The notes under the pieces are model-generated. The model was given only the letters and a program-made list of their open reading frames with translations, was not told the DNA's origin and made no database searches. The translations under genes were made by a program, and so were the position numbers. Shown piece after piece: positions 1-10,425 of a stretch of 64,000 bases of DNA. The DNA is from Candidatus Nezhaarchaeales archaeon (GTDB taxonomy: Archaea > Thermoproteota > Methanomethylicia > Nezhaarchaeales > WYZ-LMO8). The number at the start of each line of letters is the position of its first letter. Within the stretch, counting starts at the first letter, position 1. The stretch is from contig JAWAKK010000001.1 of assembly GCA_038887515.1 (NCBI GenBank), positions 256,001-320,000 of the forward strand. The letters run 5' to 3'.

Positions 1-1316
1 TACCCACTTATTGTACGATACACGACAACAACCACATAGCTAGGTTACTACTACCCGAATGCATAACGTATCCACCAGAGAAGTACGTTACTTGGAGGGG
101 GAGAGGCTTCTGTGGAGAGTCTCTACAGCATCAGTTTAGGCCGTATAGATATCCAGCCCCTGGCTATAACCCCATGAAGATGCTTTACAGGATAGGTGCT
201 GGCTACATAGGTACGATGACCCACACAAACAGGTGGGTAAGGGCCTATAGGAGCCCGAAGTTAGAGTTCTTCGTCGTACAAACAATATTTGCTAATGAAC
301 CTGAGTGCAAGTTTGCGGACGTTTTGTTACCAGTCTGTACGAACTTTGAACGTTGGGATATAAGTGAGTGGGCAAGCTGCTCTGGTTACATACCGCATTC
401 ATTCACTGGCGTCAACCATAGAACCATAGTACTACACATGAAGTGTATAGAACCTCTAGGACAGTCTAGAAGCGACTATTGGATATTTGAGCAGCTAGCA
501 AAGAAGCTCGGCTTCTGGTACGAGTTCACGGAAGGAGGTATGACAGACCTAGATTGGGTCAAGAGGATGTTTGAGGTAAGCGACTTACCAAAGTACATAA
601 CTTGGGAAGAGTTCAAGAAGAAGGGCTACTTCGTAGTACCACCGCCAAAGCCCTACAAGCCTACGCCTGCCCTAAGGTGGTTCTACGAGGATAGAGAAAG
701 GGACACACCCGACTGGGCTCCGCCATACCCGAAGAAGGGCCTTGCCACGCCAACCGGTAAAATAGAGTTCTACTCCAAGACTATAGAGAAGTTCAAGCAG
801 GATGATCCGGAAGAAGAGAGACCGATCATACCCATGTACATACCTTCGTGGGAGGGTCATACGAGTGAGATGGCCAAGAAGTACCCGCTACAACTCGTAA
901 CACCTCACCCGAGGTACTCTTACCACACGCACCACGATGGTAAGGGTACGTGGATAAACGAGATTCCAGAGCATAGAATAAAGAAGGAGGATGGAAGGTA
1001 CTACTGGGTGCTATATATCAATCCAAAGGATGCAGAGGCTAGAGGCATAAAACACGGCGATATAGTCAGAGTCTTTAACGATAGAGGCTCAGTGCTATGT
1101 GTAGCCTTCGTCACAGAGAGAGTGAGACCGGGGGTTGTAAGGGCTTGGGAATCCTGCAATGTTTATGATCCAATAGGTGAACCTGGCGATCCCAAGAGCG
1201 TAGATAGAGGAGGTTGCTTGAACCTCATTACTCCAGAGAAGTTCCTATCAAAGAACGCCTGCGGTATGGCTCCAAACTCATGCCTAGTCGAAGTTGAGAA
1301 GTGGAAGGGGGTGTAG
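1..1316 (+). CDS. athL: Molybdopterin (DMSO reductase family) catalytic subunit, pyrogallol-phloroglucinol transhydroxylase large-subunit-like; 5'-partial
   Basis: The frame is open from position 3 (HIARLLLPECI...YPAPGY) into the 174..1316 ORF. Motifs FADVLLPVCTNFERWDISEWASCSGYIP, DTPDW, TPHPRYSYHT, DRGGCLNLITP and ACGMAPNSCLVEVEKW closely resemble Pelobacter AthL as recalled. Confidence 0.85.
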   Translation, partial: PTYCTIHDNNHIARLLLPECITYPPEKYVTWRGRGFCGESLQHQFRPYRYPAPGYNPMKMLYRIGAGYIGTMTHTNRWVRAYRSPKLEFFVVQTIFANEPECKFADVLLPVCTNFERWDISEWASCSGYIPHSFTGVNHRTIVLHMKCIEPLGQSRSDYWIFEQLAKKLGFWYEFTEGGMTDLDWVKRMFEVSDLPKYITWEEFKKKGYFVVPPPKPYKPTPALRWFYEDRERDTPDWAPPYPKKGLATPTGKIEFYSKTIEKFKQDDPEEERPIIPMYIPSWEGHTSEMAKKYPLQLVTPHPRYSYHTHHDGKGTWINEIPEHRIKKEDGRYYWVLYINPKDAEARGIKHGDIVRVFNDRGSVLCVAFVTERVRPGVVRAWESCNVYDPIGEPGDPKSVDRGGCLNLITPEKFLSKNACGMAPNSCLVEVEKWKGV

Positions 1317-1319
1317 GAT

Positions 1320-2162
1320 ATGGTTAGGTACGCAATAGTCGTAGACATAACTAAATGCAATGGTTGCTACAACTGTTTCTTAGCTTGTAAAGACGAGTTT
1401 TGGGATAACGATTGGCTACCGTACTCCGTTGGACAGCCTAGACATGGACATCAATGGATTAGGCTACTGTATAAGGAGAGAGGAAACTATCCACATGTCA
1501 GGATCACGTATGTTCCAATGCTGTGTTTCCACTGCGAAAATCCAAACTGCATAAAGGCGGCTAAAGAAGGCGCCGTATACAAGAGACCAGACGGAATAGT
1601 AATAATAGACCCAGTAAAGGCCAAGGGACAGAGACAACTTGTCGAAGCTTGTCCCTATGGAAACATTTTCTGGAACGAAGAGAAAAACGTACCTCAAAAA
1701 TGTACCATGTGCATACACTTACTAGAACAGGGATGGAAAGAACCTCGCTGTGTACAAGCATGCCCAACAGGAGCTTTAAAGTTTGGTGATCTAGATGATC
1801 CGAAGAGTGAAGTTTACGGAATGGTAAAGTCCGGGCGTGCGATACCATTTAAGCCCGAAGCGGGACTGAGGTCAGGAGTATTCTACGTGGGTCTCCACCG
1901 ATACGCAAAGGAGTTGCTGGCTGGAAGTGTCGCACTTAAAGGTAGTGACGAGGTTGCTAAAGGCGCGAAGGTAATGCTAGTAAATAAGAAGACAGGCGAG
2001 AAGCTGGTCACAGAGACAAACGAGTTTGGATTATTCGAGTTCGACGGCCTTGAGTTAGGGCAATACACGTTGACCATAGAGTATCCAGGCTACAAGACCA
2101 AGGCCCTCGACATAGTTCTCTCGAAGAGCTTATATATGGGTTACATTGAGCTAGAAAGATAA
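1320..2162 (+). CDS. bthL: Fe-S beta subunit with C-terminal Cna/carboxypeptidase-regulatory-like domain, transhydroxylase small-subunit-like
   Basis: Cys motifs CNGCYNCFLAC, CFHCENPNC, CPYG and CTMC..RCVQAC. One cluster position is degenerate (DPVKAKGQRQL), as in BthL. C-terminal ETNEFGLFEFDGL beta-sandwich. Confidence 0.85.
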   Translation: MVRYAIVVDITKCNGCYNCFLACKDEFWDNDWLPYSVGQPRHGHQWIRLLYKERGNYPHVRITYVPMLCFHCENPNCIKAAKEGAVYKRPDGIVIIDPVKAKGQRQLVEACPYGNIFWNEEKNVPQKCTMCIHLLEQGWKEPRCVQACPTGALKFGDLDDPKSEVYGMVKSGRAIPFKPEAGLRSGVFYVGLHRYAKELLAGSVALKGSDEVAKGAKVMLVNKKTGEKLVTETNEFGLFEFDGLELGQYTLTIEYPGYKTKALDIVLSKSLYMGYIELER

Positions 2163-2196
2163 TTAATTTTACAAGAAAAGTGAAGGGGTAATTGAC

Positions 2197-2334
2197 ATGT
2201 TAATCCCCATAGAACAAATCCCCATAGAAGCCCTGCCAGTAAGACTATTTGTTGAAGCGTGGATAGCAATGATAATCACGAACATATGGTTCTACATAGG
2301 CTACAAGATCGCTCAGAGTAGAAAGAAGGAGTGA
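2197..2334 (+). CDS. 45-aa single-TM membrane microprotein (MLIPIEQIPIEALPVRLFVEAWIAMIITNIWFYIGYKIAQSRKKE)
   Basis: AAGGGG SD-like motif upstream, hydrophobic helix plus basic tail, stop overlaps the next ATG (TGATG). Confidence 0.65.
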   Translation: MLIPIEQIPIEALPVRLFVEAWIAMIITNIWFYIGYKIAQSRKKE

Positions 2335-2474
2335 TGGCCATGGAGCTCAATGTAGATTGGCTAACTACATGGGAGGGCTTCTGGTTCTACATTTTCATAA
2401 TATTTTTAATACTGTTCTACGGCGGCGTAAGGAAAAGCAAGAAAACTTCGGAGTCAGCCACTAAAAGTGGGTGA
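2334..2474 (+). CDS. 46-aa single-TM membrane microprotein (MAMELNVDWLTTWEGFWFYIFIIFLILFYGGVRKSKKTSESATKSG)
   Basis: AGGAG SD, coupled to the previous ORF, TM helix plus Lys/Arg tail, ends 6 nt before the SSS gene. Confidence 0.65.
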   Translation: MAMELNVDWLTTWEGFWFYIFIIFLILFYGGVRKSKKTSESATKSG

Positions 2475-2480
2475 TATGAC

Positions 2481-3971
2481 ATGGCGCTTAGGATGGAGAT
2501 ATTACTTCCAGTAGTGATATACTACTTGGTAGTCACCATTGGTGTTGGGACCTACTTCATAAGGAAATACGGTAGGGCGGCGAGAGACTTTACGGTTGCA
2601 GCGATGTCATTGCCGTGGTGGCTAGTAGCTATGGGCATAGTATTGGGGCCTTTCGGTGCCGGACATACATTGAGCCCGGCCGAAGCATCATGGAGATGGG
2701 GCGCTACGCCGAACTGGTGGTCAATAGTAGGTGGTACCCTATCACTAACTATAGCGATATTCACTATCGGTAGGTGGTACAGGAGGCTTGGAGCTTCAAC
2801 AATAGCTGAAGCCTACGAGAAGGTTTTCAGCCCAGGAGTAAGAGCGCTTGCGTCAGCTACAACTCTCTTGGCATCTCTAGCTATAGGTAGTCTAGAGTTT
2901 TATGCAAGCGCTGCAGCTATCTCGGGCTTTACCGGACTAGACATAGGGTTCTGCCTCATATTCTCCTTCGTGTTCTTCATAATATACGTGTTGTTCTCGG
3001 GAGTAATGCAGCTAGCCGTCGTCAACTTAATAAACATAATAGTGTACTACGTTGGCGTGGTACTAGCGCTCGTAGTTCTAACTTCAATTGTCGGACAAAT
3101 AGGTGGTTGGAAGGTCGCTGAACAATTAATAGTTCAGAAAGTGGGTACAAAGGGAGTTACATTATTTGCTCCTGAGCTCGGACCATTCCTCGGCTTAGTG
3201 CTCCCAATAGCAATACTTCATGCATGTTATACGCCACTAGTCCAAGGGTTCATGCAACCAGTGCTAGCTGCAAAGGATGAGAAGCAGATAACGAAGGGGT
3301 GGCCCCTAGTGCTAGTGTTGAACGCAAGTGCTACGACGGCATTCGTGGTCATAGGTTTGGCGTCGTTTACTCTGCCGTCGACGCTTTACGGTCCACTAGC
3401 TCCTACCATAGAAGCGCTTAGAGCCCAAGGTGCAGGCGTGCCAGCCATAATACTTACCATAACGGAACTACTTCCTGGTGCAGGTGCGCTAATCTTGATG
3501 TCGTTGTTAGCTGCCACGTTATCCACGGGTGGTGCTTTCGTACTAGGTTCTTCAACTGCAATAGTCGAAGACCTTATATCAATGTACAAGAAGTTCGACG
3601 AGAGAGTAAGACTGATACTGCTACGTGTATTCATTATCGTCGCATGTATACTATGTCTCGTTGGAGCAATGTTCATGCCATACCTGATAGCTGCCTTCTT
3701 ATGGGTATTCGGATGGACTGTGCCCTTCTTCGTTGGTTTAGTGTTTGCATGGTTATGGCGCAGAAGCACTAAGGCAATGCTTGGAACGGTAGCGATCACG
3801 TGGATCGTGCACGTGCTATGGACTATATTCGGAGTCAATGTACCCTTTGAGTGGCTAAAGCCTCCTCTAGGCAACACCTATCCGCTAATCATAATAGCCA
3901 TAATAGTATACGTGGTACTGGCCTTAGCATCCAAGGATAGCAAAGAACCCGGTAAGTTGCTGACAAAATAA
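2481..3971 (+). CDS. Sodium:solute symporter (SSS/PutP family)
   Basis: About 13 TM segments; DFTVAAMSLPWW, LLAATLST and IVEDL motifs. Confidence 0.9.
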   Translation: MALRMEILLPVVIYYLVVTIGVGTYFIRKYGRAARDFTVAAMSLPWWLVAMGIVLGPFGAGHTLSPAEASWRWGATPNWWSIVGGTLSLTIAIFTIGRWYRRLGASTIAEAYEKVFSPGVRALASATTLLASLAIGSLEFYASAAAISGFTGLDIGFCLIFSFVFFIIYVLFSGVMQLAVVNLINIIVYYVGVVLALVVLTSIVGQIGGWKVAEQLIVQKVGTKGVTLFAPELGPFLGLVLPIAILHACYTPLVQGFMQPVLAAKDEKQITKGWPLVLVLNASATTAFVVIGLASFTLPSTLYGPLAPTIEALRAQGAGVPAIILTITELLPGAGALILMSLLAATLSTGGAFVLGSSTAIVEDLISMYKKFDERVRLILLRVFIIVACILCLVGAMFMPYLIAAFLWVFGWTVPFFVGLVFAWLWRRSTKAMLGTVAITWIVHVLWTIFGVNVPFEWLKPPLGNTYPLIIIAIIVYVVLALASKDSKEPGKLLTK

Positions 3972-3974
3972 AAC

Positions 3975-3991
3975 CTCTTTCTTTTTTATTA
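3975..3991 (+). terminator. Oligo-T archaeal terminator
   Basis: CCTCTTTCTTTTTTATT directly after the SSS stop codon. Confidence 0.55.
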
Positions 3992-4218
3992 ATACTTTTC
4001 TCCTTAAACCCGTTTTTGTAAAGGAATGTTAATTTTAAATTTAATGTTTAAAGAGTTCTTGAAGTTATGGATGGTTAGACCACATCTTTAATTATGCTAT
4101 CAGATAAATTTCGCTTAAGGAAGTTAAGGCTAGCTTCCTATAACCTCAAAGCAAATCTTTAAGATTTTATGGATCTCGAATAATGATATTTTGTTTTAAT
4201 ACCGCTTTACGAATTACG

Positions 4219-4788
4219 TCAAATTCTACTAAACCAAGAAGTTTTCGATGTGTTTATTGCGAACATTAAGAGCCAGAGTGTTGCGACGATTAAGACCGAT
4301 ACTTCAAGCATGCCGACCGAGGTCCATGGAATTAAAGCGAAGATTAATGCTATTACACTTAGCGTTAGCAAGACAATGCCTAAGGCCCTTTTTATCTTCA
4401 TGGTCCATATGCTTACAACGATCATTGAAAGTATTAAGAACGAAAAGAACATAACCGAAACGAAGTAGTGAGGCCTGGTACCTTCAGGGTATGTGGAAAC
4501 TAACGTTAAGAATATGGACGATATTGAAAAGAAGACTCCTCCTATACGTCCTAACCGACCCCTCAATTTTAATATCAAGGTGCAACCATATGCTAATGCA
4601 AGAAATGAGGCTACAATAAGCCCTCCATTAAAAACGTAACTGAATGATACTCCTATTGCGCCTAGATCGCTTAAAGCATTTCTATATAATGAGAACCATG
4701 GATTAAGAATTATTGATATAAGTATTGTTACCCAGCCAATAAACATGGCTATAATCCCAAGTAGGTGAGTAAGGAGGCTAAGTCTCAT
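4219..4788 (-). CDS. DUF998-family membrane protein
   Basis: NPWFSLYRNALSDLG and YPEGTRPHYFVS motifs; multi-TM. Confidence 0.75.
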   Translation of the reverse strand: MRLSLLTHLLGIIAMFIGWVTILISIILNPWFSLYRNALSDLGAIGVSFSYVFNGGLIVASFLALAYGCTLILKLRGRLGRIGGVFFSISSIFLTLVSTYPEGTRPHYFVSVMFFSFLILSMIVVSIWTMKIKRALGIVLLTLSVIALIFALIPWTSVGMLEVSVLIVATLWLLMFAINTSKTSWFSRI

Positions 4789-4954
4789 GAAGGCATCAAT
4801 ATAAAGTTCTAATAATGTATGACAATTTAAAGCTTTAGAAGTCTAACAATACCTAATCTAATTTCGTACCTATTTAGTTATTAAATCTTCATTGGCAGGT
4901 AAACACAGTAAAATTTTTCAACAAAAGTCATGGAATTGGTTAGGAAAATCTTAA

Positions 4955-5335
4955 TTATCTTACGAATATACGTTCTTCGCATGAATCTTTATACGGCCTT
5001 ATATGATTGTAATTTCTTTCGAAAACGATCCTATCGTTAAGCTTTTTCAATACGTAATTGCACACAGGCTCCGAGACGTACTTGCACGTAAACCTTGTAT
5101 CTAAGCCTAGAAGCAACGTGAATTTAAGTATTGGGCATGGGTTTCTGCAGCGCGTTATTAATTCAGTGTTGGTAAGCTTAACTACCTCGATATCTCTCAT
5201 ACGAATCCTCAAGAACTTGAAGTAGAAAAGTTCGAGGATTTCGTTCACATTACTTGCCTTTGGTGCACTAAGAGTCCATAGCAGACCGTATGGGTAAAAT
5301 ATTTGCTTAGCCAGAAAGAGAACGAGGTTCTTCAA
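4955..5335 (-). CDS. Hypothetical protein with four Cys (CRNPCP, C, C, C)
   Basis: ORF with a GGGGA SD-like motif and TTG start; Cys pattern suggests metal binding. Confidence 0.5.
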   Translation of the reverse strand: MKNLVLFLAKQIFYPYGLLWTLSAPKASNVNEILELFYFKFLRIRMRDIEVVKLTNTELITRCRNPCPILKFTLLLGLDTRFTCKYVSEPVCNYVLKKLNDRIVFERNYNHIRPYKDSCEERIFVR

Positions 5336-5529
5336 TAATTCACGTCCCCCACTTCGGCTTCTCAGAAACCAGTAAGACTATGAGCATAAAATAAGCCTTT
5401 TAGAAGAAAAATTAGAAGAATCAATTTCTAAGTCCTAATCAGTTAAATCCTACAATTAAATAGGACATCTAGCTAAGAAACCGTAAACCTCATAACTTGT
5501 CTGTTGAAGTGTTAATCGGTTGAGTTCCA

Positions 5530-6825
5530 ATGCGTGGCTCGGATATTGTAGCTAATGTATTAAGGTTAGTTAAGGAGCACGACCATTGGAGGTCCTCTTG
5601 CCTAAATCTCATTCCGAGCGAAAATGTGACTAGCAAATTTGTCAGATTGATGTTAACGTCAGATCTCGGTCATAGGTATGCTGAAGGAAAGCCGTTTAAG
5701 AGGTACTACTGTGGAACTCGATTCATAGATGAAATAGAAGCGGTGGCTATAGAGCTAGCAAAGAAACTATTTAAATGCAAGTTTTCTTCTGTAAAACCTA
5801 TTTCAGGGACCATTGCCAATTTAGCTGTCTTCTCAGCTCTAGCGAAACCAGGGGACACCATTATGGGTCTCAGCATACCATGTGGTGGACACATAAGTTT
5901 TGCCGAAGTTGGCGCCGCAGGTATTAGAGGGCTGCGCGTGGTTAATTTGCCTTTCGATTATAGAGATATGAACGTAGATATCGAAAAGGCCATCGACACA
6001 ATAGCTAAAGTTAGACCTAAGCTAATAGTCCTAGGGGCTAGCCTCTTTCTATTCCCTCATCCGGTGAGGGAGCTCAGTAAGACAGCGGAAGAATTCGATG
6101 GACTTGTAGTTTACGATGGATCCCATGTTCTAGGCCTTATAGCCGGCGGTCAATTTCAAGATCCGCTATCTGAAGGAGCTCTCGCACTTATGGGCAGCAC
6201 CCACAAGACTTTTCCGGGCCCTCAAGGTGGTATAGTTCTGTCAAACGAAGAGACAGTCATGGAGAAAGTAGAAGAAGCACTATTTCCGGGGTTGGTTAGC
6301 AACCACCATCTACATAGGGTTGCCGCGCTAGTAATATCTCTGGCCGAAATGATAGAATTCGGAAGAGAGTACGCCAGGGACGTTGTGGATAACGCAAAAG
6401 AGCTTGCGAGATCGCTTTACGATAGAGGATTTAAGGTCCTTTGTCCGCATAAGGGCTTTACCTCATCTCATCAAATAGTAATTGACGTAGCTGAGTTGGG
6501 CGGTGGAAGGTGGGTCTCGAAGAGGCTCGAGGAGGCAAACATAATAACTAACATGAACTTACTCCCATGGGATGACGTTAAAAAAGCTAAAGACCCAAGC
6601 GGATTAAGGCTTGGAGTTCAAGAAGTCACAAGGTTAGGAATGAAGAGGGACGAAATGAACTTCATAGCTGAGAAGATAGAGGAAGTTCTATTGATGAATC
6701 GTAACCCAGCCGACGTCAGAAATGATGTGGCAAACTTTATGGCCTCTTATCAAGAGGTTAAGTATTGCTTCAACGGCTCTAAAGCATATAGAATAATAGA
6801 CTACTTAGAAGCGTTTGAGGTATGA
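5530..6825 (+). CDS. glyA: Serine hydroxymethyltransferase (archaeal type)
   Basis: LIPSEN, YAEG, STHKTFPGPQGG (PLP Lys) and PSGLRLG motifs. Confidence 0.97.
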   Translation: MRGSDIVANVLRLVKEHDHWRSSCLNLIPSENVTSKFVRLMLTSDLGHRYAEGKPFKRYYCGTRFIDEIEAVAIELAKKLFKCKFSSVKPISGTIANLAVFSALAKPGDTIMGLSIPCGGHISFAEVGAAGIRGLRVVNLPFDYRDMNVDIEKAIDTIAKVRPKLIVLGASLFLFPHPVRELSKTAEEFDGLVVYDGSHVLGLIAGGQFQDPLSEGALALMGSTHKTFPGPQGGIVLSNEETVMEKVEEALFPGLVSNHHLHRVAALVISLAEMIEFGREYARDVVDNAKELARSLYDRGFKVLCPHKGFTSSHQIVIDVAELGGGRWVSKRLEEANIITNMNLLPWDDVKKAKDPSGLRLGVQEVTRLGMKRDEMNFIAEKIEEVLLMNRNPADVRNDVANFMASYQEVKYCFNGSKAYRIIDYLEAFEV

Positions 6826-7076
6826 AGTCCTAGGCCATTAATGCATATTGTCCATTAAAACCCTCCTCTATAACGCTACTAGTTATAAGTTAACGTCAGA
6901 TTTGGTGGGGTCGCCAAGGCTTAATTTCCTTAGAATACAGCGTACATCAGTGAAGATATGGAGTTCTTCATATTACTTCTTGCCGAACGTGGTAGGAAAC
7001 TAGAAAAAGATATAAGCTTATTAATGTAAAATTTTTCATATCCTAATTCTAAGGCCTGGTCGGTGGAAGAGAATTC

Positions 7077-7611
7077 ATGTCTGAGTCACCCTTAGAACTC
7101 GTAGTAAATTGGCTTAGAGCTCTTAGGTTTATGATACTTGATGTGATATCTCGTCTGAAAAACGTGGAGCCAAAGGCTAAAAGAGACATTTCAGTCTTCG
7201 TAACCTTAATAACTAACAGACTGAATAACATCGCTAATAGCTTAAACAGCGTATTGAAGCTTCTCGGAATAAACCCCGACGAGAAGTTAGAGTCACTCGA
7301 GCATCAACTGGGGGAGATAGTTGTAGGTCCTTAGAGGGTTTACTTCTATCGCTGAAGAGATCTTGAATAGAGACGTTTTAAGCGCAGAAAGAGTCGTATC
7401 TTCACTAGAAGAAATGTTGCATAGGATCGAAATGGTAATTGTTGGATCTAGAGCATTGTCTTTAATGGTTCAAGCGTTGCATGATAAAAATCGTGCTATT
7501 TTAAAGGTTGCGTTCGACGATGTGATGGATGATTGGTGCATAATAGCTAAGCGCTTTAGGGAACTTAACGAAGCGTGTGTAACTATGGGTGTAATGGGAG
7601 AGATGGGATAA
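7077..7611 (+). pseudogene. Helical hypothetical protein split into ORFs 7077..7334 and 7363..7611
   Basis: The second frame is open back to about 7327 (VLRGFTSIAEEIL); adding one base near 7326 joins the two ORFs. Confidence 0.5.
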
Positions 7612-7667
7612 AGGAGAAAATTACGCTCAACTCGTGGTGTAGAGTAGGATAGTACTTAACGTTGAAA

Positions 7668-8486
7668 TTAAGATCTTATCGGTACGCCTCTTTCAGCCAG
7701 GTACTTCTTCACGTCTGATATGCTATAAACGCCGAAGTGAAATATTGATGCCGCCAACGCCGCATCTGCCTTACCTATAGTTAGTGCCTCATACATGTGA
7801 TGTGGATTTCCAGCCCCACCACTGGCAATAACTGGTACGCTTACCGCTTCAGCGACAGCTCTCGTCAACTCTATATCGTAGCCGCCTGTAGTACCGTCTT
7901 TGTCCATACTCGTTAAAAGTATCTCACCAGCTCCTAGCTCAGCAACCTTCTTAGCCCACCAAACGGCGTCTATACCTGTCGGTTGCCTACCACCATAAAT
8001 GTAAACCTCCCACCATACCTCTCCTTCGCTAGTCTCGACGTAAAATCCTTGAGGGCTCGGTCTCTCTTGCCTTAAGACTCTTTTTGCATCTATAGCCACT
8101 ACTATGCACTGAGAGCCGAAGATATCTGACGCCTCTTTGACAAGCTGCGGCCTCTTGACTGCGGCAGTATTTATCGAGACTTTATCAGCTCCAGCGACTA
8201 GCAACTCCCTTATATCGTCTATGTCTTTAATACCGCCTCCAACCGTGAAAGGTATGCTTAACGTATCTGCCGTCCTCTCGACGGCTTCTACTAAAGTCCT
8301 TCTTCCTTCGTAGGAAGCGGTTATGTCTAGGAATACCACTTCGTCAGCCCCTTGACTTTCGTAGTACGCAGCTAACTCAGCTGGATCACCCGCATCGCGT
8401 AGATTTACGAACCTAACCCCCTTTACAACTCGACCCCACTTAACGTCTAGACACGGTATAATCCTTTTAGTAAGCATGATAGTCAC
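7668..8486 (-). CDS. hisF: Imidazole glycerol phosphate synthase cyclase subunit
   Basis: [16 protein letters not shown] and [13 protein letters not shown] motifs; alternative ATG start at 8477. Confidence 0.97.
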
Positions 8487-9206
8487 CTAACAATCCTTAC
8501 ATACCCTTATGGCCTCTCTAAGGCTTATTAATCCCTCATAGAGTGCTTTACCAACTATTAAGCCATAGGCTCCAGCTTTCTTTGCCTTTTCTACGTCCTG
8601 TAAACTTGAGACCCCTCCGGCAGCTAGTACCTTGATCTCACCTATCTTTGCTACGCTCTCAATGCTTTTTTCATCTATACCACTAAGTGTGCCGTCCCTC
8701 GCAGCCGACGACACGAGTATCCACTTAAAGCCCATCTCCTTAGCTCTCCTAGCTTCGTCGACGAGAAGCCTTTCAGTGACCTCTTTCCAACCCTTAATTG
8801 CTACCTTACCGTCGAAATGGTCTAAAGCTACTACGATTTTGTCCCCGCCTATTTGCTTTACGAACTCTTCTGCTAACTCCATCTTTTCTATGAATATCGT
8901 GCCTATAACGACTCTCGCTGCTCCGGCCTCAAGTAGTGTAAGCGCCTTCTCTATGCTCCTAATTCCTCCAGCCACCTGCACCTCAATGTTTGCTTCAGAT
9001 ATCAATTGCAGTATAGTCTCCATGTTGCTACCCCTGCCGTGGGCCGCATCTAGATCCACTACGTGGACTACTTCAGCGCCTTCTTGCTCCCACTTCCTTA
9101 AAGCCTCGAGAGGCTTCAGTTGGTAGATCGTCAACTTATTCATGTCACCCATGTAGAGTCTCGCGACCTTTCGACTAACTATGTCTATTGCTGGTATTAT
9201 CTTCAA
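8487..9206 (-). CDS. hisA: ProFAR isomerase
   Basis: IIPAID, HVVDLDAA, QVAGGIRS and DGTLSG motifs. Confidence 0.95.
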   Translation of the reverse strand: MKIIPAIDIVSRKVARLYMGDMNKLTIYQLKPLEALRKWEQEGAEVVHVVDLDAAHGRGSNMETILQLISEANIEVQVAGGIRSIEKALTLLEAGAARVVIGTIFIEKMELAEEFVKQIGGDKIVVALDHFDGKVAIKGWKEVTERLLVDEARRAKEMGFKWILVSSAARDGTLSGIDEKSIESVAKIGEIKVLAAGGVSSLQDVEKAKKAGAYGLIVGKALYEGLISLREAIRVCKDC

Positions 9207-9212
9207 ACACGT

Positions 9213-9824
9213 TCACCGTTTAGCAAGCTTAACAAAGTTCTTAAGAATCGTCAAGCCATCCTTACCGCTCTTTTCAGGGTGAAATTGGGTTCCAAAGATC
9301 AGAGGTTTAGTCTCAATAATTGAGGGAAACTCGCACCCATACGTTGTAGTCGCAATTACGTTTTCCCATCTTTTTGGGCTCACTTTATAAGAATGGACGA
9401 AATACATGTAGGCTTCGTCACGAATTCCTTCAATTATTGGGCTCCAAGACCTTATTTTAATGGTGTTCCAACCGATATGGGGTATCTTAACTATATTGGG
9501 AAGTTTATCGACGAAACCTTCGATGATCCCTAATCCCCTTACACCTCCACCCTCTTCGCTCCATTCGAAACATAATTGGAGCCCGAGACATATGCCGAGG
9601 ACTGGTCTTCCACCTCTTATAGTCTCTTGCAATGAATGTAGCATGTCGCCAAGGTTTTGCATAGCACTTTTAAAAGATCCTACCCCCGGCAGGACTACCG
9701 CGTCAGAACTCATAACGTCTTCTTCTCTAGCAGTTACGACTGCGGTTGCACCAGCCCTCTCAAGCCCTCTCTTAATGCTTCTTAAGTTCCCTATACCGTA
9801 GTCTATTATTGCTACGACCACCAT
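9213..9824 (-). CDS. hisH: IGP synthase glutamine amidotransferase subunit
   Basis: IIDYGIGNL, GICLGLQ and QFHPEKSG motifs. Confidence 0.96.
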   Translation of the reverse strand: MVVVAIIDYGIGNLRSIKRGLERAGATAVVTAREEDVMSSDAVVLPGVGSFKSAMQNLGDMLHSLQETIRGGRPVLGICLGLQLCFEWSEEGGGVRGLGIIEGFVDKLPNIVKIPHIGWNTIKIRSWSPIIEGIRDEAYMYFVHSYKVSPKRWENVIATTTYGCEFPSIIETKPLIFGTQFHPEKSGKDGLTILKNFVKLAKR

Positions 9825-9837
9825 GCCCTACACACTT

Positions 9838-10425
9838 CTACAGTATGCCCTTTATGCTTGGAATACCTCCACGATTTATAGCGACAGCCTGTTTTAACGC
9901 TAACGCAAGAGCTTTAAATGCTGCTTCCACCTTGTGATGGTCATTGCTCCCACATAGGGTCCTTACGTGTATTGCTATCTTAGCTGAGTCGCACATAGAC
10001 TTAAAGAAGTGCATTATGTCTTCAACCTTCACGTCTTCGACGTAATCTGACTTCACGTCCAGGCTCGCGTTAAACGAAGGCCTTCCCGAAAGGTCCACAG
10101 CTACTAGAGCTAGTGCATCATCCATGGGTACTATAGCCCAGCCAAACCTGTTCACCCCCTCTCTTCCTCCAAGAGCCTTTGCAAGTGCTTCACCAATAGC
10201 TAAGCCCACATCTTCAGCTATGTGGTGTTCTAAATCGCCTTCAAGTACTCTGACTTTGAGATCCAGTGAACCATGATAAGACAACGTCTTAAGCATGTGA
10301 TCTAGAAATAGAAAGCCTGTCTCGGCTTCGCATGAACCGGATCCATCTAGCTCTAGCTCAACCTCTACTTGCGTTTCCGAAGTTTTTCTCTCAACCCTCG
10401 CCCTTCTCAAGGGGCCTTCCCCCAA
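9838..10425 (-). CDS. hisB: Imidazoleglycerol-phosphate dehydratase
   Basis: FLDHML, HHIAED, PMDDAL and NDHHKVEAAFKA motifs. Confidence 0.96.
   Translation of the reverse strand: MGEGPLRRARVERKTSETQVEVELELDGSGSCEAETGFLFLDHMLKTLSYHGSLDLKVRVLEGDLEHHIAEDVGLAIGEALAKALGGREGVNRFGWAIVPMDDALALVAVDLSGRPSFNASLDVKSDYVEDVKVEDIMHFFKSMCDSAKIAIHVRTLCGSNDHHKVEAAFKALALALKQAVAINRGGIPSIKGIL

Follow-up and report, generated by a model that had tools for sequence, protein, structure and literature searches.

A predicted pyrogallol-phloroglucinol transhydroxylase locus with a symporter and two microproteins in a Candidatus Nezhaarchaeales archaeon

The first 3971 nucleotides of a 64,000-nucleotide window (contig JAWAKK010000001.1, positions 256,001 to 320,000, assembly GCA_038887515.1; G000:C1:256001-320000) from a Candidatus Nezhaarchaeales archaeon carry a compact set of genes for a predicted two-subunit transhydroxylase-type molybdenum enzyme, two microproteins and a symporter. 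The host genome is a metagenome bin of 1.29 Mb in 9 contigs, 94% complete, and its DNA is present in a hot-spring metagenome. The locus comprises the following features:

3..1316, plus strand: last 437 codons of an AthL-like large subunit of the molybdenum-bis(pyranopterin guanine dinucleotide) type, 5′ end open; Pfam Molybdopterin and Molydop_binding
1320..2162, plus strand: BthL-like Fe-S small subunit, 280 aa; Fer4_11 and a C-terminal CarboxypepD_reg domain, PF13620
2197..2334, plus strand: microprotein 1, 45 aa, one hydrophobic helix and a basic tail
2331..2474, plus strand: microprotein 2, 47 aa (46 aa from the ATG at 2334), one hydrophobic helix and a basic tail
2481..3971, plus strand: sodium/solute symporter (SSS) family protein SSS2, 496 aa; SSF PF00474, E 7.7e-14
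3976..3989, plus strand: T-rich tract including a T6 run, read from the sequence, right after the symporter stop codon (3969-3971)

All five genes listed in the initial annotation are found where it had placed them, and the tight coupling and poly-T end that it described hold as well. Spacings along the unit are 3 nt, 34 nt, -4 nt (-1 from the ATG at 2334) and 6 nt; the stop of microprotein 1 overlaps the start of microprotein 2, and purine-rich stretches (GGAG/GGGGT/GGGTGAT) precede the starts of both microproteins and of the symporter. Oligo-T tracts serve as archaeal terminators, and the tract at 3976..3989 is a likely transcript end. We consider it likely that the enzyme, microprotein and symporter genes are co-transcribed as one unit. 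For the genes after the large subunit, NCBIfam contributes nothing specific. Rfam and tRNA scans of the entire window gave no matches, and the operon is not unusual in base composition over positions 1-10000.

The large-subunit gene starts about 1.3 kb before the window. Its complete frame of 908 codons is open from L003:10590 (numbering of the surrounding locus L003), and the likely start is a GTG at L003:10680 (window -1320) preceded by an AT-rich stretch, which would give a protein of ~878 aa. Among all solved structures, the fragment in the window best matches the pyrogallol hydroxytransferase chain 4v4c_A (E 1.2e-148); the full-length protein reaches 1074.6 bits (query 51-907 against chain 6-869), and the next solved enzyme is a dimethyl sulfoxide (DMSO) reductase with 286.9 bits. 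Besides PF00384 and PF01568, it carries the AthL-specific first domain PF21423 AhtL-like_1st (E 1.6e-24). Retrieval of the 5′ half allowed the active site to be compared, and all ten aligned positions (H144, R153, D174, S175, W176, Y404, C557, S558, G559 and Y560) are identical to 4v4c_A; the CSGY segment singled out in the initial annotation is present and aligns to CSGY of the solved chain. By eye, the N-terminus shows one CxxC pair and an RR, but neither a four-Cys motif nor, behind the RR, a hydrophobic segment. The host genome encodes one strong transhydroxylase match, the second match having an E-value of 9.8e-4.

The small subunit aligns to 4v4c_B from residues 2-278 to 2-274, C-terminal domain included (E 6.5e-67). 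Its 12 cysteines (positions 13, 16, 19, 23, 69, 72, 77, 111, 128, 131, 144 and 148) all align to cysteines of that chain. Compared with the 16-Cys protein 2vpw_B, it lacks the final Cys of motif II and the initial three of motif III; because these four further cysteines are absent, we read the subunit as having Cys enough for three [4Fe-4S] sites and one degenerate site, as had been noticed initially. The tail described there as Cna-like is indeed a separate C-terminal domain, a CarboxypepD_reg beta-sandwich (PF13620, E 7.3e-12), and the model with a Cna-like fold, SdrD_B, matches it weakly (E 0.0027).

The phylogenetic position was assessed with a FastTree analysis of 96 rows and an IQ-TREE analysis (LG+C20 PMSF, short search) of 36 of these rows, hand-chosen as clade representatives. 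AthL itself was left out of the rows, and bit scores to 4v4c_A served as its stand-in. In both trees the large subunit belongs to a five-row archaeal clade (support 100 in FastTree, 99 in IQ-TREE) nested within the main transhydroxylase-type clade, whose sister clade is formed by second paralogues. The main clade also holds the most Pelobacter-like row, a Geopsychrobacteraceae sequence (L048) scoring 1224.1 bits to 4v4c_A, as compared with 1074.6 bits for the large subunit of this locus, 1033.7 for a same-genus B-type copy and 480.7 for a sister-clade copy; membership in the transhydroxylase-type clade, on which the initial annotation had staked its reading, is what the trees return. Among the 75 main-clade rows, the pocket residues are retained in 73 (H), 75 (D), 75 (S), 75 (Y404) and 73 (Y560) cases, and R153 and C557 vary, being kept in 59/75 and 48/75 rows. 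All 21 sister-clade rows have a gap at positions 559-560.

A protein search with the large subunit scored 7999 proteins, of which 4253 lie at E <= 1e-20. Identity is 58-85% for the best 120, and the sources named for them include Bathyarchaeia bins and a Nezhaarchaeales bin as well as Chloroflexi, Peptococcaceae, Deltaproteobacteria and Clostridiales; one Bathyarchaeota protein in this set already bears the NCBI label pyrogallol hydroxytransferase large subunit. Among species-representative genomes, the closest loci, at 73-77% identity, belong to hot-spring bins labelled Bathyarchaeia and to one labelled Nitrosopumilales, followed by Dehalococcoidia at 61-66%. In 40 relatives searched at E <= 1e-100, copies occur in 7 of the 9 other same-family genomes and in none of the 31 genomes of other families of the order and class; same-genus copies are 63-65% identical to the large subunit of this locus. 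An even sample of the phylum (E <= 1e-150) gives matches in 7/401 genomes, from two families. This patchy distribution fits gene transfer, with no direction inferred. A single acquisition for all archaeal copies was considered and set aside, the trees requiring at least 3-4 domain-label changes. Candidatus Nezhaarchaeales bins, and a few bins labelled Thermosphaera sp., encode proteins that share at least 90% identity with the small subunit and with the cyclase and BKACE proteins described below. Seven same-family genomes (G001, G002, G004, G005, G007, G008 and G009; loci L093-L100) encode further transhydroxylase-like paralogues of 39-44% identity, which sit in the sister clade, without the segment around 559-560 and mostly without R153.

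A candidate phloroglucinol-degradation cluster was found on the same 776-kb contig, 320 kb from the enzyme operon, when the genome was searched with the families of Zhou 2023 (PMC10470551). According to the accessible part of that paper, the Clostridium scatologenes cluster PGR-DPGC-TfD-TAL consists of a short-chain dehydrogenase/reductase (SDR), a cyclase-family enzyme, a 3-hydroxyacyl-dehydrogenase-like enzyme and a beta-keto acid cleavage enzyme (BKACE). The archaeal cluster contains:

L008:8039-8968, minus strand: cyclase (PF04199)
L008:9039-9923, minus strand: SDR (PF13561/PF00106)
L008:9930-10286 (G000:C1:577930-578286), minus strand: cupin, 118 aa
L008:10567-12409, plus strand: CoA-transferase, two subunits
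L008:12549-13505, plus strand: BKACE (PF05853)
L008:13585-14547, plus strand: 3-hydroxyacyl dehydrogenase 3HCDH (PF02737+PF00725)

The SDR, cyclase, dehydrogenase and BKACE classes, those of the published phloroglucinol pathway, all lie within 6.5 kb. The host genome has a single cyclase gene and a single BKACE gene, separated by 4 kb, along with two thiolase genes; no stops occur inside the matches of the cluster genes. At the start of its domain the cyclase has W-P-F; the motif residues of the characterised DPGC are Trp20/Tyr22. Neither the SDR nor the cyclase is named by a specific NCBIfam model, three related models match the BKACE below their cut-offs, and a PDB search of the cluster proteins added no specific name. 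The Amidohydro_2 family includes non-oxidative hydroxybenzoate decarboxylases. A protein of this family (L008:16793-17815) and a tungsten-type aldehyde:ferredoxin oxidoreductase (L008:17897-19768) are encoded 2-3 kb past the cluster; besides two UbiD-family genes, the former is a possible candidate for a gallate decarboxylase.

Each of the pathway families is generic, and linkage was therefore tested in other genomes, many of the 77 AthL-relative loci lying on short contigs. These loci include BthL in 65 cases, the cyclase in 22, SDR in 20, cupin in 18, BKACE in 12 and the dehydrogenase in 10, with at least one of cyclase, cupin and BKACE in 28 of the 77. The nearest archaeal locus, L012, is contiguous (AthL-BthL-3HCDH-BKACE-cupin-SDR) and has the cyclase on the same contig (L108). 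Conversely, 80 cyclase-relative loci, 20 of them archaeal, contain SDR (65), dehydrogenase (56), cupin (37), BKACE (21) and AthL (7); the archaeal ones include an Archaeoglobus sp. bin at 73% identity, and Archaeoglobus carries a phloroglucinol cluster according to the part of Zhou 2023 (PMC10470551) that is accessible. The cupin is up to 71% identical across cyclase and AthL loci, and that paper (PMC10470551) never uses the term cupin in its main text. On a 1.61-Mb contig of a closely related Nezhaarchaeales bin, the accession numbers of the cyclase, BKACE and small subunit are 3 and 19 apart; this numbering, taken by itself, suggests that pathway and enzyme genes lie within ~20 genes of each other there.

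The symporter SSS2 scores 76.3 bits to TIGR00813, below the cut-off of 184, and its best solved match is vSGLT (2xq2_A, E 2.3e-5). Its subfamily is rare, occurring in 3/401 phylum genomes at E <= 1e-50 (three copies each in the host G000 and in G388, plus a fragment in G005), and a single-protein scan of genome contigs with the symporter gave one distant match only. Neither microprotein has a Pfam or NCBIfam family at E <= 0.01, DUF485 and DUF4212 included, and the atlas entry for them lists unnamed clusters only (score 0.77). Both microprotein families are nevertheless found within ~150 nt of all six complete subfamily symporter genes, in varying order and strand. Family 1 has an invariant Glu and a VNIWFY-type motif, and family 2 an invariant WL..WEG. 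Microprotein 1 has a paralogue next to the upstream symporter SSS1 (E 2.5e-6); L114 contains a further relative (E 0.001), and a 43-aa open reading frame (ORF) directly before SSS1 resembles microprotein 2. The other two symporter units of the host are:

L003:3638-3769 (plus), 3774-5315 (plus) and 5416-5595 (minus): SSS1 unit, with the family-1 member on the opposite strand
L193:4694-6196 (minus), L192:3008-3136 (minus) and 3154-3297 (minus): third symporter unit, contig C9, with its own microprotein pair

The third unit adjoins glycosyltransferases, with no aromatic context. In a complex model of the symporter with both microproteins, microprotein 2 scored 0.83 against 0.00 for the best control, a mark reached by 58/80 solved complexes and 2/110 mismatched pairs, although our own alignments and three-chain layout differ from the calibration of the tool. 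At least 97% of contacts recur between runs, and the partner has a pLDDT (predicted local distance difference test) of at least 81. The model supports binding of microprotein 2 to the symporter. Because both families accompany all six symporters, and given the complex model, we regard both microproteins as real, and a three-part uptake system with the symporter as its large subunit is probable. In Lachnospiraceae/Eubacterium bins (L050, L052 and L053), two tandem AthL-type genes are accompanied by an SSS gene (30% identical) and, after it, a pair of conserved hydrophobic ORFs of 34-36 aa, and the three-part layout may also exist outside archaea.

Upstream of the enzyme genes lie, in order, a Peripla_BP_2/FecCD pair, an MtrH-like gene, a RACo activase and a corrinoid protein, then a URO-D-family methyltransferase, a CocE/NonD hydrolase, the symporter SSS1 and a five-gene Liv-type ATP-binding cassette (ABC) system. 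The corrinoid protein has B12-binding_2 and B12-binding domains, and together with the RACo domains, URO-D and MtrH it makes up a module that is, at the level of families, of the corrinoid O-demethylase type. The Liv-type binding protein adjoins 13/77 AthL loci and 10/80 cyclase loci, and the Liv-type system may be a polyphenol importer. Its binding protein is 77% identical in a Nitrososphaerota bin (L113:11958 onward) and 75% identical, in part, in L111, adjoining cyclase-SDR-cupin-dehydrogenase genes in both. Within its gene (L003:9176-10299), contigs of the likely source run break into short, higher-depth pieces, and in a second hot-spring run this part alone is shared, with a few differences; the pattern could stem from a related strain or from a repeated segment. 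The CocE/NonD hydrolase was rejected as a conserved partner (weak matches of 22-28% identity in 3/157 loci). On the other side of the operon, beyond an AT-rich spacer of ~250 nt, a DUF998 membrane protein (E 3.2e-23) is encoded convergently at window positions 4219-4788, minus strand.

Taken as a whole, the locus most likely encodes a cytoplasmic pyrogallol-phloroglucinol transhydroxylase and a symporter bearing two single-helix microprotein subunits, together feeding the distant cluster. A trihydroxybenzene such as pyrogallol would be imported; it could also be made in the cell from methoxylated lignin monomers by the upstream corrinoid module. The transhydroxylase would then shift a hydroxyl group to yield phloroglucinol, on which the products of the 320-kb-distant cluster could act: the SDR as reductase, the cyclase-family hydrolase in ring opening, followed by the 3-hydroxyacyl dehydrogenase, the BKACE lyase and the CoA-transferase. 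Phloroglucinol would in this way be converted to acetoacetate or acetoacetyl-CoA, and via thiolase to acetyl-CoA. The host archaeon can probably ferment plant trihydroxybenzenes, and the proposal of the initial annotation that it imports and anaerobically activates polyhydroxy-aromatics draws support from clade, pocket and downstream genes alike. Around 3 of every 100 reads of two metatranscriptome runs, from the study that also yielded the likely source sample, were compared with 16 kb around the operon and none matched, a sample too thin to count.

A more far-reaching version is tentative, and we hold it to be somewhat improbable in its entirety. It would make the host the first archaeon to use a lignin-type monomer fully under anoxic and hot conditions, with syringol-type demethylation feeding carbon monoxide dehydrogenase/acetyl-CoA synthase, pyrogallol isomerised, the ring cleaved via phloroglucinol to acetyl-CoA, and uptake by a previously undescribed three-subunit sodium/solute symporter with two 45-aa microproteins. 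The host would be non-methanogenic; McrA was not found in its genome, and CdhC is present.

Several observations weigh against the proposed route. Sequence does not reveal substrate specificity within the transhydroxylase family, and the roles of H144, R153, D174, S175, Y404, C557 and Y560 in 4v4c_A, which we take to be the Mo ligand (Ser) or substrate-pocket residues, are an assumption of ours. The hydroxylases RhL and DbhL are absent from the tree rows. The SDR has GRN where the accessible text of Zhou 2023 (PMC10470551) gives TR(S/N) as the PGR motif. Of the two activities for which the initial annotation had suggested searching the genome, a reductase-class SDR is present in the candidate cluster, and no confident gallate decarboxylase was found, the two UbiD-family genes reaching 220.9 and 259.9 bits where the VdcC cut-off demands 650. 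Within the host genome, itself a metagenome bin, 320 kb separate the enzyme operon from the pathway cluster, yet both lie on one contig. A cyclase query at E <= 1e-40 found no match in the 40 other relatives, 9 of them same-family. BKACE is 84-93% identical in three same-genus genomes; in a same-genus genome, G005 (L102, G005:C1:1191001-1210000), the cupin is in two pieces, BKACE (93%) and the dehydrogenase (82%) remain, the cyclase, SDR and CoA-transferase are missing, and the locus continues with only residues 374-496 of the symporter (81%). This looks like a decayed version of the cluster and suggests that the symporter once adjoined pathway genes. Because the relatives give no cyclase match and the G005 cluster appears decayed, the full route may be confined to this species. 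Finally, adjacency to the O-demethylase module is not conserved: URO-D is matched in 1/77 AthL loci and MtrH/RACo in 0/77, and URO-D, MtrH and RACo are each found in 0/80 cyclase loci. Coupling of O-demethylation to the transhydroxylase is accordingly no more than inferred, since this adjacency is not kept elsewhere.

Resorcinol hydroxylase RhLS of Azoarcus anaerobius and 3,5-dihydroxybenzoate hydroxylase DbhLS of Thauera aromatica AR-1 hydroxylate their substrates with water in respiring bacteria, the product being hydroxyhydroquinone and not phloroglucinol. Both belong to the same Ser-coordinating RhL/PgtL family in the available text of Wells 2023 (PMC10100899). The enzyme of this locus could likewise act on another polyphenol, either isomerising hydroxyhydroquinone or tetrahydroxybenzenes, or hydroxylating resorcinol-type compounds with water and passing electrons on via the Fe-S subunit. 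We find this unlikely, although it is the strongest of the alternatives: lineages diverge even within the same archaeal family (copies at 63-65% and 39-44% identity), R153 and C557 are the variable pocket positions of the main clade, and the trees lack both hydroxylases. We also know of no explanation for the role of Fe-S clusters in the non-redox transhydroxylase reaction. Against these points stand the match of all 10 checked positions to the solved transhydroxylase, relatives adjoining genes for the breakdown of phloroglucinol, which the transhydroxylase reaction yields, and the fact that this is the sole strong copy in a genome with a phloroglucinol pathway.

The cassette could also be a recent acquisition, silent or decaying, with no role in the host. 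The patchy presence (7/401 phylum genomes, 0/31 same-order or same-class genomes outside the family) and the decayed cluster in the same-genus genome point this way, but the five frames are intact and tightly coupled, the pocket is fully kept, nothing is missing from the downstream cluster and its matches are free of internal stops, and other Nezhaarchaeales bins encode proteins of at least 90% identity, so we regard this as quite improbable. Least plausible by far is an S- or N-oxide reductase acting on DMSO, trimethylamine N-oxide (TMAO) or biotin sulfoxide, as in some source annotations (the JGI label of close homologues is 'trimethylamine-N-oxide reductase (cytochrome c)'), a reading that we dropped on scores: the fragment matches NCBIfam models of such reductases below threshold, the best, bisC_fam, at 194.6 bits against a cut-off of 1017.55; the solved transhydroxylase scores ~3.7 times stronger in bits than any DMSO/TMAO reductase (1074.6 vs 286.9); and the partner is BthL-like with its special C-terminal domain, PF21423 being present in the large subunit.

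With the pyrogallol-phloroglucinol transhydroxylase as the preferred assignment, its novelty is moderate: enzyme and pathway are already known, and database labels name archaeal copies. The initial annotation had considered the capability undescribed in archaea. Our literature searches found no paper describing an archaeal transhydroxylase, and pyrogallol, gallate and phloroglucinol are not mentioned in three Bathyarchaeia papers; the claim is only partly right, given the NCBI label on the Bathyarchaeota protein and the Archaeoglobus phloroglucinol cluster in the accessible text of Zhou 2023 (PMC10470551). In the available parts of the respective papers, a superfamily survey gives 285 hits for the RhL/PgtL family, 0 of them archaeal (Wells 2023, PMC10100899), and a study of cultured Bathyarchaeia found no ring-cleavage genes in them (Yu 2023, PMC10989822). 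Contrary to that survey count, as far as its accessible text goes (PMC10100899), an intact-pocket transhydroxylase is combined with genes for opening the phloroglucinol ring in several archaeal lineages: hot-spring Nezhaarchaeales, bins labelled Bathyarchaeia, a Thaumarchaeota bin and a Conexivisphaera bin. Activity of these genes would mean that archaea share in the anaerobic turnover of tannin- and lignin-derived trihydroxybenzenes, high temperature included. The symporter with two microprotein partners would be a small addition to transporter biology.

Among known systems, the closest is AthL/BthL of Pelobacter acidigallici (PDB 4v4c, 4v4d, 4v4e), which shares with the archaeal enzyme the two-subunit composition, with full-length matches to both chains, the AhtL-like first domain, the 10 identical pocket positions and, in the small subunit, 12 aligned cysteines and a C-terminal beta-sandwich. 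Unlike that enzyme, the one described here belongs to a thermophilic archaeon, forms a unit with a symporter and two microproteins, adjoins an ABC transporter and a corrinoid methyltransferase module, and has a predicted activity. The AthLS clusters of sediment Chloroflexi/Dehalococcoidia (Hug 2013, PMC3971608, accessible in part) are among the nearest bacterial relatives at 61-66% identity. They have the same enzyme genes beside phloroglucinol-pathway genes, often with a tandem sister-clade paralogue, whereas the host archaeon has one copy and its pathway genes lie 320 kb away.

The candidate cluster resembles PGR-DPGC-TfD-TAL of C. scatologenes, to judge from the accessible text (PMC10470551), in gathering the same four enzyme classes, matched by class and not by sequence; it differs in adding a conserved cupin and a CoA-transferase, and in GRN versus TR(S/N) in the SDR. 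The upstream module is similar, at family level, to MtoABCD of Methermicoccus shengliensis and Archaeoglobus fulgidus, with a corrinoid protein, a RACo-type activase and two methyltransferase types. In the available part of Welte 2021 (PMC8359953), both of these archaea turn methoxylated aromatics into hydroxylated derivatives, and Nezhaarchaeota are listed among archaea with mtoABC homologues; unlike the two species, as described there, the host archaeon also has ring-degrading genes. The symporter and its microproteins recall ActP-YjcH (DUF485) and DUF4212 systems, in which, according to the accessible part of a preprint (Price 2016, 10.1101/072470), a small hydrophobic protein encoded beside a symporter is needed by it or bound to it. 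In contrast to those systems, the unit described here has two single-helix proteins of 45-47 aa that match no Pfam family at E <= 0.01, alongside a symporter of a rare subfamily.

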